Origin: Escherichia coli
Lineage (GTDB): Bacteria > Pseudomonadota > Gammaproteobacteria > Enterobacterales > Enterobacteriaceae
Reading direction: 5' to 3' (one strand)
DNA length: 64,000 nt
Assembly: GCF_044324785.1 (NCBI RefSeq)
Contig: NZ_CP172127.1
Shown piece after piece: positions 3,001 through 8,200 of the stretch; position 1 is the stretch's first letter, and the number at the start of each line of letters is the position of its first letter. Made by a program: the position numbers.

Positions 3001-6000
3001 CGAAGAGTGCCTGCCGCCACAGCAGTATGAAGGTTATCGCGAACTGAAACGCAACGCGCCAGTCGGAATGATGGTCACCAGCGGTGAGCATCACGGCACA
3101 CTGCAATCTTTCCGTACGCTTTCAGAAACCGGCATCGACATTATGCAGCCGGATGTTGGCTGGTGCGGTGGGTTAACCACGCTGGTGGAAATTGCCGCAA
3201 TCGCCAAATCCAGAGGGCAACTGGTGGTGCCGCACGGTTCGTCTGTTTACTCTCACCATGCGGTGATCACCTTCACCAATACGCCATTCAGCGAATTCCT
3301 GATGACCAGCCCGGATTGTTCAACGATGCGTCCGCAATTTGATCCGATTCTGCTTAATGAGCCAGTGCCGGTGAATGGTCGTATTCATAAATCAGTGCTT
3401 GATAAACCCGGTTTCGGCGTCGAACTCAATCGTGACTGCAATTTGAAACGCCCCTACAGCCACTAATCATTCCGGGCGTTGCTGTGACAACGGTAACGCC
3501 CACACATTCTAAGGAGCTTTTTATGAGCACCGCTTTGCTTGACGCCGTGGTGAAGAAAAACCGTGCGCGTTTAATTCCGTTTATGTTGGCGCTGTATGTG
3601 CTGGCGTTTCTCGACCGTTCGAATATCGGTTTTGCCAAACAGACCTACCAGATTGATACCGGGCTGAGTAATGAAGCTTATGCGCTGGGAGCAGGCATTT
3701 TCTTTGTTGTATATGCGTTTCTGGGTGTTCCGGCGAATCTTTTGATGCGCAAACTGGGGGCAAGAACCTGGATTGGTACGACAACACTGCTGTGGGGATT
3801 TCTTTCGGCAGCCATGGCATGGGCCGATACTGAAGCGAAATTTCTGATCGTTCGTACTCTGCTTGGTGCTGCGGAGGCCGGGTTCTTCCCTGGTATGATT
3901 TATCTCACCTCGCAATGGTTTCCGCAGCGTAATCGCGCCAGCATTATGGGGTTGTTCTATATGGGCGCACCGCTGGCGTTAACACTGGGATCACCGCTTT
4001 CCGGCGCGCTGCTGGAGATGCATGGATTTATGGGGCATCCCGGCTGGTTCTGGATGTTTGTGATTGAAGGATTGCTGGCAGTCGGCGCTGGGGTATTCAC
4101 ATTCTTTTGGCTTGATGACACACCGGAGCAGGCACGTTTTCTGAGTAAACAAGAAAAAACGTTGCTTATCAATCAACTGGCAAGTGAAGAACAACAGAAA
4201 GTGACTTCTCGATTGAGCGATGCGCTGCGTAATGGCCGAGTCTGGCAACTGGCGATTATCTACCTGACCATTCAGGTGGCGGTTTACGGATTAATTTTCT
4301 TCCTGCCGACCCAGGTTGCTGCATTGCTGGGGACAAAAGTGGGCTTTACGGCGTCGGTGGTCACCGCCATTCCGTGGGTTGCGGCCTTGTTTGGGACCTG
4401 GCTTATTCCGCGCTATTCCGATAAAACCGGCGAACGGCGTAATGTCGCAGCGCTGACATTACTGGCGGCGGGCATTGGTATTGGTCTCTCCGGGCTGCTT
4501 TCTCCAGTACTGGCGATCGTAGCGCTGTGTGTTGCAGCCATCGGGTTCATTGCCGTGCAGCCGGTGTTCTGGACGATGCCGACACAACTTCTTTCCGGTA
4601 CGGCGCTGGCTGCGGGGATTGGTTTTATAAACCTGTTTGGTGCAGTGGGCGGGTTTATTGCCCCGATCCTGCGCGTGAAAGCAGAAACGTTATTTTCCAG
4701 CGATGCGGCGGGATTACTGACGCTGGCAGCGGTGGCGGTCATCGGTTCGCTGATTATTTTCACTCTGCGTGTAAATCGCACTGTTGCGCAGACCGACGTG
4801 GCACATCATTAAATAGTTAAGGAACACGATGAACGCATTATTAACCAATCCCTTTAAAGAACGTTTACGCAAGGGCGAAGTGCAAATTGGTCTGTGGTTA
4901 AGCTCGACTACTTCTTATATGGCAGAAATTGCCGCCACTTCCGGTTATGACTGGTTGCTGATTGACGGGGAGCACGCGCCTAACACCATTCAGGATCTTT
5001 ATCACCAGCTACAGGCGGTAGCACCCTATGCCAGCCAACCCGTGATCCGTCCGGTGGAAGGCAGTAAATCGCTGATTAAACAAGTCCTGGATATTGGCGT
5101 GCAAACTCTACTGATCCCGATGGTCGATACTGCCGATCAGGCACGTCAGGTGGTGTCTGCCACGCGCTATCCTCCCTACGGTGAGCGTGGTGTCGGGGCC
5201 AGTGTGGCACGGGCTGCTCGCTGGGGACGCATTGAGAATTACATGGCGCAAGTCAACGATTCGCTTTGTCTGTTGGTGCAGGTGGAAAGTAAAACAGCAC
5301 TGGATAACCTGGACGAAATCCTCGACGTCGAAGGGATTGACGGCGTGTTTATTGGACCTGCGGATCTTTCTGCGTCGTTGGGCTACCCGGATAACGCCGG
5401 GCACCCGGAAGTGCAGCGAATTATTGAAACCAGTATTCGGCGGATCCGTGCTGCGGGTAAAGCGGCTGGTTTTCTGGCTGTGGCTCCTGATATGGCGCAG
5501 CAATGCCTGGCGTGGGGAGCGAACTTTGTCGCTGTTGGCGTTGACACGATGCTCTACAGCGATGCCCTGGATCAACGACTGGCGATGTTTAAATCAGGCA
5601 AAAATGGGCCACGCATAAAAGGTAGTTATTGATATCAAAGGCCCATGGGGATCGGCTGTGGGCCTGTGTTAATTAGTGGTTATTCGCTGCCAGATCGGCT
5701 TCGCTTAGCTGGGTGGCCGCGAGCACCAGGTCACGATCAATGCCCTGTTCCAGCATGCGCAAAGCAATTTTAATGGCTTGTTCATGCATGCCTTCCTGCC
5801 AGCCAATTTGGTGTCCTTCCTGCCGTAGCCGTTCAGCAATAGTCATTAATCTCTCCTTTTAATAACAGTTCGGAATATCAGCATCAGTGAGTTGGGTTGT
5901 CGCCAGCACAATCTCACGTTCAAAGCCCTGTTCCAGCATGCGCAAGGCAATTTTAATGGCTTGTTCATGCATACCTTCTACTTTGCCTTTCTGCAAACCC

Positions 6001-8200
6001 TCCAACTTCCCCTCCTGCCAACCTTCAATCTTACCCTCCTGCCAGCCAATTTGATGCCCTTCCTGCCGCAGCCGTTCAGCAATAGTCATTAATCTCTCCT
6101 TTTGTAGTGGTGAACGTTCGGCAATCTCCTCAATAAAACGGGTGAAACGGGAGGTATCGCCGCATTGCAGCAGATAATTAAACAGCGTTTGTAGCTGGCT
6201 GTCATTAGTGAAGCCTCTAACCAAAAGCGTGGTGATCCTGTCGACCATACCGATTAAATCGCGGTCGCGAATATGCTTTTGAATCAGTTCAAGCAGAGCT
6301 ATACGCCGATGTTGCATGATCTCATCGTCAGGTACGATGGTGATATCCACCAACGGAAAAGCTTCGGTGTACAACTGCCGGGCAAGTTGCGGATCGTCAA
6401 ACTCATCCAGCCAGTTGAGTGAGTACGGGTAAGGCGAGGTTTCGCCATGATAAAACAGCAACGGCACCACCAGCGGGACTCTGTCATAGCCTTTGTCCAG
6501 GTGACGCTGCATGGCGGCAGTGGCATAGCGCATTAGCCGAAAAGCCATATTCTTTTCTGCAGAGCTTTGATGTTCAATCACGCAGTAGATATAACCGTCA
6601 CCGTCGCTGGTTTCCACGGACCACAAAACATCCGAGTAGTAAGCGCGTAAACTTTTTTCAATAAAACTGGTGGGTTCCAGGCGTAAGGTTTGCAGGTTAC
6701 AAAGCTTGCGCAGTGGTTCTGGTAAATGTATTTCGAGAAAATCCCGTGCGGTTTCGGGTGTGAACATAAAAGTTTTAAATACCGCATCATGCGGGGAGGA
6801 GGTTGTTGATTCGGTCATGGTTGTCCGTCACCTGATATTTATGATGACGCGACATTACGGTTATCCCAGGCCTTTGACATCTGCCAGTTTCAGCCTTTGC
6901 GAGACGTTTTCAGAGGAATTTTCACTGCGTTGCAACGCATACATTGGGCACGGAATCGTGTACGCAAAAATGCCCGGTAACCACATGCTTACCGGGCATC
7001 AGAAGGGAGTTTAAGCCAGCGCCTGGGCCAGCAGCGTAATCGGATGTTCGCAGCGAAGACTTGTGGACATCTCAATCTGCCATTTACAGGTTTCGCAGTC
7101 GGTAACCACCAGATCTGCGCCGCTTTCTTCTATCTGACGGAACAGTGGTGCGCCGATGGCTTGTGAGGTGGGGTAGTTCTCTTTTTTGAAACCGTAAGTA
7201 CCTGCAATACCGCAGCACTGGGAATCCAGCACCGTTAACTCAAGTCCCGGGATTTTACGCAACAGCTCCAGGGTGTAGAGCGTCCAGCCCATTTTTTCCA
7301 TATGGCACGGAGTGTGATAAACCACTTTCAGCGGCAGCGGTTTCAGCGGTAACGTTTTGCCTTCGTCCAGCTTGCGCCACAGCCAGCGGGTCGCCAGTTC
7401 GATATGATCGCGCAAGCCTTTGTTGTCGACATTCAGCACTTCTGGGTATTCGTCGCGCAGGGCAAATGTACAGGTTGAGGAGGTGGCAATCACCGGAATG
7501 CCTTTTACTCCCACTGCTTCGCGGATCGACTCTACATTTGTGATTGCCTGTTTGCGTGCTTTATCGGTAAAGCCGTTGGCGATTAGCGGTACGCCGCAGC
7601 ATTTTTCTTTGCTGAGTAGTTGTACACCGGTACCCATTGCGTTGAGCACTTTAATTAAATCTTTACCTAACTGCGGATGGTTGTAGTTAACGAAGCAGCC
7701 GTGAAAGAAAGCGACCTGGTCTTTATACTGCGCCTGCTGAGCCGCCACGCTGCGATACCAGCGACGGAACGTGCCGAAGGAATATTTCGGTAGCGTGCGG
7801 CGATGATCGATTTTTAACGCCGCATCAAGCAGCTGACGCACCGGTTTCAGCGAGGTAGCGGTGTTGACGATTGGTGCGAACGGCGTGGAAACGCTACCCA
7901 TCAGGTCGGTATGACTCAACACAAAATTACGCAGCGACGGGCGCGTGGTGTCATATTTCGCCCGCGCGCGCTGGATGATATCGCCAATCTTCACATCGGA
8001 CGGGCAGGCGACTTCGCAACGTTTGCAGTTGATGCAATATTTCAGCGCCTCGTCATACAGTGCGCCATCTTTCAAACGCAGACGCTCGCCATCCGGCCCG
8101 GCCTGTTTTGGCCCGGGATAGCTGGGATTCACCCGGCTCACCGGGCAGGCGGTGGTGCAGATGGTGCACTTAATGCAGTTTTCGAAGCTGGTGTCGTTCA

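Follow-up and report, generated by a model that had tools for sequence, protein, structure and literature searches.

Introduction

The rpnE locus of Escherichia coli raises the question of what an in-frame tandem repeat, whose length differs between strains, contributes to the protein that carries it, and by which steps such lengths are gained and lost. It was addressed in a window of 64,000 nt of E. coli DNA (NZ_CP172127.1, assembly GCF_044324785.1), which is the whole stretch analysed and to which all positions below refer. An earlier note on this DNA had pointed to about four imperfect 24-nt units at 5974-6069 in rpnE (yfaD), encoding the octapeptides GWQEGKIE, GWQEGKLE and GLQKGKVE, and to a different array length in ypaA, the neighbouring paralog. 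We regard it as very probable that this array is the hypervariable four-amino-acid, or dodecamer, tract of an Rpn gene-within-a-gene toxin-antitoxin module.

Rpn modules have been described in detail (Zhong et al., 2023, PMC10400941). Each E. coli rpn gene was found to possess an internal start yielding a small protein, RpnS, which blocks the toxic full-length nuclease, RpnL, and four-amino-acid repeats were reported for all E. coli RpnS and RpnSs. In the crystal structure of RpnA_S (PDB 7TH0) helix 1 forms the dimer interface. When one KGIE repeat was added to RpnC_S or RpnC_L alone, neutralisation was lost, and when it was added to both, neutralisation was restored. Furthermore, rpnSs genes were reported to be lost through deletion or fusion, and a plasmid-borne Rpn (RpnP2) to protect against phages (Zhong et al., 2023, PMC10400941). 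Intragenic RpnS antitoxins, strain-variable repeats of four amino acids (dodecamers in the DNA), ypaA as rpnE_Ss and fusions are hence already known from that study, and the array is the RpnE instance of a published phenomenon, confirmed here and not new. The value of the present analysis lies in this confirmation and in detail for one locus: an inventory of alleles with 3 to 11 tetrads in rpnE and 3 to 9 in ypaA, a dominant step of 24 nt, exact-junction evidence for events of the slippage type and of the ypaA-recombination type, and alleles that are stable within lineages.

Results

The repeat array of rpnE

The gene rpnE (5859..6818, minus strand) encodes RpnE_L of 319 aa, with an N-terminal PD-(D/E)XK/Transposase_31 nuclease domain and a C-terminal helical domain that holds the array. 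On the plus strand, the 24-nt frames read CCTTCTACTTTGCCTTTCTGCAAA (5974-5997), CCCTCCAACTTCCCCTCCTGCCAA (5998-6021), CCTTCAATCTTACCCTCCTGCCAG (6022-6045) and CCAATTTGATGCCCTTCCTGCCGC (6046-6069), of which the first three show 1, 1 and 0 mismatches to the consensus given in the earlier note, the last one being degenerate. Read in frame on the minus strand, the repeat gives GWQEGKIE (6047..6024), GWQEGKLE (6023..6000) and GLQKGKVE (5999..5976), flanked by the degenerate LRQEGHQI (6071..6048) and GMHEQAIK (5975..5952), so that the roughly four imperfect units resolve into three clean ones and a degenerate one. The earlier note placed them at the 3' end of rpnE; the array occupies codons 253-284 of 319 and thus not the extreme end of the gene. 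Together with four adjoining-residue codons, the three well-conserved units (5976..6047, minus strand) account for 60 nt which are absent from K-12 rpnE.

The full array (5967..6062, minus strand) consists of eight tetrads, with Gly at each fourth residue eight consecutive times, from G254 to G282 of RpnE_L. Tetrads of the type G-[WL]-Q-x alternate with tetrads of the type G-K-[ILV]-E, and because of this alternation the DNA has a period of 24 nt and not of 12. The elementary unit is nevertheless the 12-nt tetrad, with the octapeptide as a two-tetrad super-unit, since some of the changes between alleles are single steps of 12 nt (4 aa).

That the array is real and not a product of chance follows from several measures. 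Tandem Repeats Finder (TRF), applied to the window, called a period of 24 with 2.2 copies, 83% matches and a score of 73 at 5991-6044; over the array of 96 nt, identity at lag 24 amounted to 0.65, compared with an rpnE median of 0.26; and none of 20,000 codon shuffles attained the observed 24-nt periodicity. No other 96-nt stretch within the 64-kb window scored higher for lag-24 identity. Identity at lag 12 was weaker (0.40, shuffle p=0.07). A repeat search also returned three 14-nt copies at 24-nt spacing together with a copy in ypaA. An assembly artefact was ruled out by genome N3, which has the same allele at 99.9% identity over the 1191-nt locus; for the 216-nt array region, AR_0077 matches at 100% and 53 genomes match at >=99%.

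The identity of the gene itself is well defined. Residues 8-209 of RpnE match PF04754 Transposase_31 (YhgA-like) over positions 1-202 of the 203 in the profile (E=6.1e-88), and the protein scores 710.8 bits on the NCBIfam RpnE equivalog NF007418 (cut-off 583) and 173.9 bits on TIGR01784 (cut-off 52.1). Over 1-256 its numbering runs collinear with that of the RpnA model, and the RpnA residues D11, D63, E82, Q84 and R94 as well as PDDE (at 163) are all kept at the same positions in RpnE, the list of active-site residues having been defined by mutagenesis (Kingston et al., 2017). The syntenic gene in RefSeq likewise bears the name rpnE.

Length variation among strains

Copy number was found to vary strongly between strains. 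Of 5426 complete E. coli genomes, 5420 carry the rpnE locus. In these, the stretch matched by the 1191-nt query is 948 to 1299 nt long, with lengths that mainly differ by multiples of 12 nt, and a large class of loci is shorter by 243 nt, exactly one copy of the tandem duplication described below. For closer comparison 27 E. coli loci, picked across the locus-length classes, were fetched. Their rpnE arrays comprise 3, 5, 6, 7, 8, 9 or 11 tetrads, and the RpnE_S part, read from the internal start, has 56, 57, 65, 68, 73, 76, 80, 88 or 89 aa, while YpaA measures 57, 61, 65, 73 or 81 aa with an array of 3, 4, 5, 7 or 9 tetrads. All 27 loci keep the arrays in frame, with Gly at every fourth position and the tetrad types in alternation. 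In a K-12 derivative rpnE has 900 nt (299 aa) and the minimal array of three tetrads, and YpaA has 61 aa and four tetrads. The length of 299 aa that the earlier note had given for K-12 is therefore correct, its expectation of variation between strains is borne out, no uniform repeat number being shared by all strains and K-12, and the array explains the 20-aa excess of the 319-aa protein.

Allele shares were estimated from 59 usable rows out of 60, evenly spaced over the ranked matches and read with the fetched loci; the values are approximate and carry the sampling bias of the database, with no phylogenetic correction. The minimal allele of three tetrads is the commonest with 58% of this sample. 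The allele class of the window (eight tetrads, RpnE of 319 aa) is a minority allele with 15%, followed by 11 tetrads (12%) and five tetrads (10%), and six, seven and nine tetrads each contribute 2%. Disrupted genes occur besides these length alleles: in UTME-10 (L017, 260-2132) an IS2 insertion takes away the C-terminal part of rpnE, and in isolate F829 (L009, 544-1514) the gene is frameshifted.

An in-frame tandem repeat with a copy number that differs between strains could call to mind a contingency locus, which undergoes phase or antigenic variation by slipped-strand mispairing at high frequency. We consider such switching extremely unlikely here. Units of 12 or 24 nt do not permit on/off frameshifting, in keeping with the 27 of 27 arrays in frame, and the units are imperfect (83% matches), which reduces slippage. 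The K-12 laboratory derivatives JW5503, 9A, 2FA, ET12567, g83 and LTE800 show a single length in spite of separate histories, ypaA is identical at the DNA level in four isolates that come from the USA, China and Sweden, and the allele of 200112 keeps the 8-tetrad structure despite 5 synonymous differences in 96 nt. Rejection of phase variation is thus based on units in multiples of 3 nt and on the stability of the alleles, which look stable within lineages and not like those of a fast-switching locus. Given the uniform K-12 derivatives and the identical alleles of distant isolates, length heterogeneity within a cultured population, which the earlier note had proposed to look for, is unlikely to be easy to detect.

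The internal small gene rpnE_S

Within the 3' part of rpnE an in-frame internal open reading frame (ORF) begins at Met244 of RpnE_L (ATG at 6089..6087) and encodes a putative antitoxin of 76 aa, RpnE_S (5859..6089, minus strand). It is preceded at a distance of 6 nt by a Shine-Dalgarno motif AGGAG (6096..6100, minus strand; aaaaggagagattaATG), which was read from the sequence, and the equivalent internal Shine-Dalgarno is functional in rpnA (Zhong et al., 2023, PMC10400941). SPA-tagging and ribosome profiling revealed RpnE_S in MG1655, and neutralisation of the long protein by its small partner has been shown for other Rpn paralogs (Zhong et al., 2023, PMC10400941). The array begins about ten codons after the internal ATG: residue 10 of RpnE_S opens the first tetrad, and residue 18 the inserted ones. 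Neither this small gene nor the independently varying array of ypaA and the rpnE::ypaA fusions had been mentioned in the earlier note.

The start of RpnE_S resembles that of RpnA_S (PDB 7TH0), with 12 of the first 13 residues identical. A phmmer comparison with the 49-aa chain of 7TH0 paired residues 1-13 with 1-13 and 38-72 with 10-44, so that the array appears as an insertion into helix 1. An AlphaFold2 (AF2) model of RpnE_S, computed from an alignment of 10 alleles, showed helices at 3-9, 21-53 and 58-65 with a mean confidence (pLDDT) of 68. Its top match in Foldseek was again 7TH0 (probability 1.00, TM 0.73 target-normalised), but with E=0.12 and an rmsd of 13.9. A match to the designed PPR protein 5i9h (E=1e-6), which covers only the helix after the array via repeated weak stretches, was discarded as a repeat-protein artefact.

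ypaA and the tandem duplication

A tandem segmental duplication (5694..6103; copies at 5694-5860 and 5877-6103) created ypaA from the 3' end of rpnE. The gene (rpnE_Ss; ORF at 5673..5846, minus strand, 57 aa) is a free-standing tandem copy of rpnE_S. Over the direct repeats D1 and D2, ypaA DNA is 84-90% identical to the 3' end of rpnE, the start of ypaA is the same as that of RpnE_S (aaaaggagagattaATGACTATTGCTGAACGGCT), and one 17-mer carrying AGGAG precedes both. The Shine-Dalgarno motif of ypaA (AGGAG, 5853..5857, minus strand) directly follows the rpnE stop codon (5861..5859), and YpaA matches positions 244-308 of NF007418 (E=9e-29). The array of ypaA is minimal, with three tetrads (5784..5819, minus strand) and without the inserted units. 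Since ypaA has only three tetrads and rpnE eight, the length difference between the copies is exactly 60 nt (spacings of 183 and 243), and the earlier statement of unequal arrays in this genome stands.

The gene was named rpnE_Ss and its translation was demonstrated; in MG1655 RpnE_L, RpnE_S and YpaA were all detected (Zhong et al., 2023, PMC10400941). As a matter of annotation, in most genomes ypaA carries a pseudogene label ('hypothetical protein; incomplete; missing N-terminus') and has its coordinates stretched to the rpnE stop codon, and the PGAP/RefSeq product for rpnE in the 27 fetched loci is 'ISNCY family transposase'. Both RefSeq labels conflict with published evidence: ypaA is a translated small gene and not a truncated pseudogene, and Rpn proteins are not typical transposases.

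The sole mildly new thread concerns the relation of the two arrays. In all 22 two-copy loci, i.e., the window and 21 fetched loci (11 haplotypes among the latter), the number of tetrads in ypaA never equals that in the adjacent rpnE. The rpnE/ypaA pairs are 8/3, 3/4, 11/9, 8/4, 9/7, 8/5, 6/4, 9/5 and 11/7, with rpnE as the longer partner in all except the K-12 type. The mismatch is not significant, however: the distributions of the two genes overlap only at 3 and 9, and random pairing predicts about 3% equality per haplotype. Because the arrays are mismatched in length, and with the precedent of RpnC, YpaA should not neutralise the neighbouring RpnE_L. We tentatively propose, while considering it rather unlikely, that ypaA may be no redundant second antitoxin but a spare cassette, mismatched in length, for the C-terminal module of RpnE, swapped in by homologous exchange. 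If so, joining ypaA by exchange to the nuclease domain of rpnE would change the specificity of toxin and antitoxin at a single stroke, a loose parallel to the recombination of silent cassettes in antigenic variation. Another possibility is that YpaA neutralises or senses a non-self RpnE-type allele. The array mismatch and the repeated fusions described in the following section are compatible with a swappable C-terminal cassette, and the mismatch is functionally suggestive.

Steps and routes of length change

Most differences between alleles are steps of 24 nt, and steps of 12 nt involve an extra GLQE or GKLE tetrad. Two kinds of junction were recognised. For the first, S1-KEN-05-A and KE50 have RpnE, RhmA and GlpC protein accessions in common and differ in ypaA by one 24-nt unit (GAAGGTAAATTAGAAGGTTTGCA[A/G]), the extra unit being flanked by a near-identical neighbouring one. 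Similarly, in the rpnE allele with six tetrads there is a chimeric junction (ATTGGTTGGCAG), the product that a deletion between the two misaligned GGYTGGCAG motifs in the 8-tetrad allele would leave behind.

The second kind joins rpnE to ypaA, and the tandem duplication is the substrate for these deletion-fusions found in other strains. Five one-copy loci (L004, L011, L012, L013 and L025) consist of the N-terminal part of rpnE fused to a C-terminus of the ypaA type, and about one third of the sampled genomes have this one-copy form. At least five different rpnE::ypaA fusion alleles were distinguished, with crossovers upstream and downstream of the array. In TUM2826 the crossover lies upstream, since the fusion is DNA-identical to the ypaA of KE50, FDAARGOS_1266, E41-1 and 4/4. 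In AF4 it lies downstream, since the fusion is a chimera in which the rpnE array of KE50 joins the 3' end of KE50 ypaA. These fusion junctions were observed directly, as were the anatomy of the array, its variation between strains and the sizes of the steps.

New lengths may accordingly arise by two routes: misalignment between imperfect 12/24-nt units, through replication slippage or unequal exchange, and homologous recombination with ypaA, which can exchange the entire C-terminal module with loss of ypaA. The earlier note had considered the array prone to slipped-strand or recombinational change; both types of junction are indeed found, but the fast switching which this might imply is at odds with the lineage-stable alleles.

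Discussion

Role of the array

The most likely role of the array, on the evidence analysed here, is to set the length of the helix through which long and small proteins (L-S), or two small proteins (S-S), interact, and hence their pairing specificity. One stretch of DNA would encode both the C-terminal domain of RpnE_L and, from the internal AGGAG-N6-ATG, the 76-aa RpnE_S. The array would be situated in the first long helix of a small three-helix domain, the presumed counterpart of the dimer-interface helix of RpnA_S, and gain or loss of tetrads would lengthen or shorten this interaction helix. As both proteins share the DNA, the array lengths of L and S change together. By analogy with RpnC, array length would then determine which small protein binds and silences which long protein. 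We infer that RpnE is itself a toxin, that its array governs which L and S proteins pair, and that the diversity is driven by pressure from phages.

A different function would be that of a molecular ruler for DNA recognition, in which the array spaces two DNA-contacting elements and so alters the target specificity of the nuclease instead of the pairing of toxin and antitoxin. EcoR124I/II offers a precedent, and HHpred similarity between RpnS and motifs of the helix-turn-helix (HTH) type has been described (Zhong et al., 2023, PMC10400941); the variable tail was also speculated to set DNA preference (Kingston et al., 2017), and HTH repressors are among the weaker Foldseek matches of the RpnE_S model. 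These matches have E>0.9, however, RpnA shows little, if any, sequence preference in cutting DNA (Kingston et al., 2017), the repeat belongs to the helix through which RpnA_S dimerises, and a change of repeat number in RpnC directly altered neutralisation between S and L (Zhong et al., 2023, PMC10400941). A DNA ruler is therefore judged very improbable.

Pairing specificity as the role of the array has to be weighed against a number of contrary points. In the AF2 model pLDDT falls to about 50 in the array (residues 10-30), which is too weak for claiming that the array extends helix 1, and sequence similarity between RpnE_S and 7TH0 is marginal (phmmer E=0.15). A strict sigma-70 consensus scan of 5600-7010 yielded no internal promoter, so that the one reported from differential RNA sequencing (dRNA-seq) was not placed by consensus, which says little given the strictness of the scan. 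K-12 RpnE gave no activity when assayed for recombination, toxicity and SOS (Kingston et al., 2017); the construct used there comprised the whole gene, so that RpnE_S was encoded too. RpnE was not independently flagged as a defence gene with PADLOC v2, whose library is without an Rpn model. Finally, the stability within lineages fits slow neutral drift as well as selection. As a separate observation, PADLOC returned a weak match to PDLC01084 ('C3a178, putative invertase'; E=8e-5) over RpnE residues 208-300, including the array, which is uninformative on defence function.

Some of these points would suit neutral length polymorphism of the minisatellite kind, in a segment that is dispensable within an inactive, decayed paralog, with a repeat number that simply drifts as nothing hinges on it. 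Besides the inactivity of K-12 RpnE in every assay of Kingston et al. (2017), the existence of disrupted rpnE alleles (the frameshift of F829 and the IS2 truncation of UTME-10) and the predominance of the minimal allele, with about 58% of the systematic sample, speak for drift. Yet a decayed gene fits poorly with 27 of 27 arrays in frame, Gly register and alternating tetrad types being kept, with intact nuclease residues in RpnE, and with a locus retained in 5420 of 5426 genomes. Moreover, RpnE_L, RpnE_S and YpaA are all detectably made in MG1655, Rpn proteins that are unrelated and come from distant phyla show similar repeat variation, and a functional effect was measured in RpnC (Zhong et al., 2023, PMC10400941). 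Neutral drift thus seems improbable, although a better candidate than the DNA ruler.

Likeness to known systems

The closest comparison is with the Rpn_L/Rpn_S modules themselves, which belong to the same gene family and, for K-12, include the same locus (rpnE-ypaA/rpnE_Ss). They share the internal Shine-Dalgarno motif with ATG, repeats located 8-20 residues after the internal Met, a repeat composition of one hydrophobic residue with charged residues or Gly, variation in multiples of four amino acids, and fusions through which the downstream copy is lost (Zhong et al., 2023, PMC10400941). There is no difference in kind. Specific to the rpnE locus are the two alternating tetrad types, owing to which steps of 24 nt dominate.

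In the TAEL repeats in HsdS of EcoR124I and EcoR124II, named as a precedent by Zhong et al. (2023, PMC10400941), a four-amino-acid repeat likewise lies in a long helix, and its copy number (2 or 3) alters function. The HsdS repeat sets the spacer of the DNA target (N6 or N7), whereas for the RpnE array the best evidence concerns protein-protein pairing; the proteins are non-homologous.

Gly at every fourth residue over many turns, as in RpnE (8), is also a feature of the AxxxG(xxxG)m repeats of FliH/YscL and of the deca-GX3 motif of Yae1-Lto1. The latter motif was reportedly implicated by Paul et al. in 2015 in complex formation of the two partners. FliH models match the array at E=1e-7 to 4e-4 but with 20-31 bits against cut-offs of 180-293, and Yae1_N at E=0.07 with 13.2 bits against a cut-off of 27.5; as these scores lie far below the family cut-offs, the resemblance is one of motif and composition and not of homology. 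The GxxxG repeats of FliH are variable in length between orthologs (Trost & Moore, 2009, PMC2674601), but this variation is between species, while that of RpnE is between strains.

Simple-sequence contingency loci of pathogens share with rpnE tandem repeats in coding regions and copy numbers that differ between isolates. Unlike these, the rpnE array has imperfect units in multiples of 3 nt, is always in frame, shows no on/off switching and is stable within lineages.

Locus context and other repeats of the window

The gene order glpC - rpnE - ypaA - rhmA is found with identical neighbours in K-12 and 26 other genomes. In the window, ORFs of rhmT (3484..4812) and rhmA/yfaU (4829..5632) lie on the plus strand and glpC/glpB (from 7011) on the minus strand. 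Between the convergent rhmA and ypaA a G+C-rich, terminator-like hairpin with a 10-bp stem was found (5639..5665), which is terminator-like on the plus strand and possibly bidirectional.

Two further repeats were recorded in the window. At 24111-24171 a proline-rich PDPDPT linker is encoded by a tandem repeat of 18 nt (3.4 copies, 79% matches; PPSPPDPDPTPDPDPTPDPDPTPDPAPDPTP) within an ORF of 1252 aa (21344..25102, plus strand), which resembles a large autotransporter; being in frame, this repeat could vary in length between strains. The ORF occupies the position of yfaL in K-12. At 55186-55225 TRF reported a 21-nt repeat with 1.9 copies and a score of 52.

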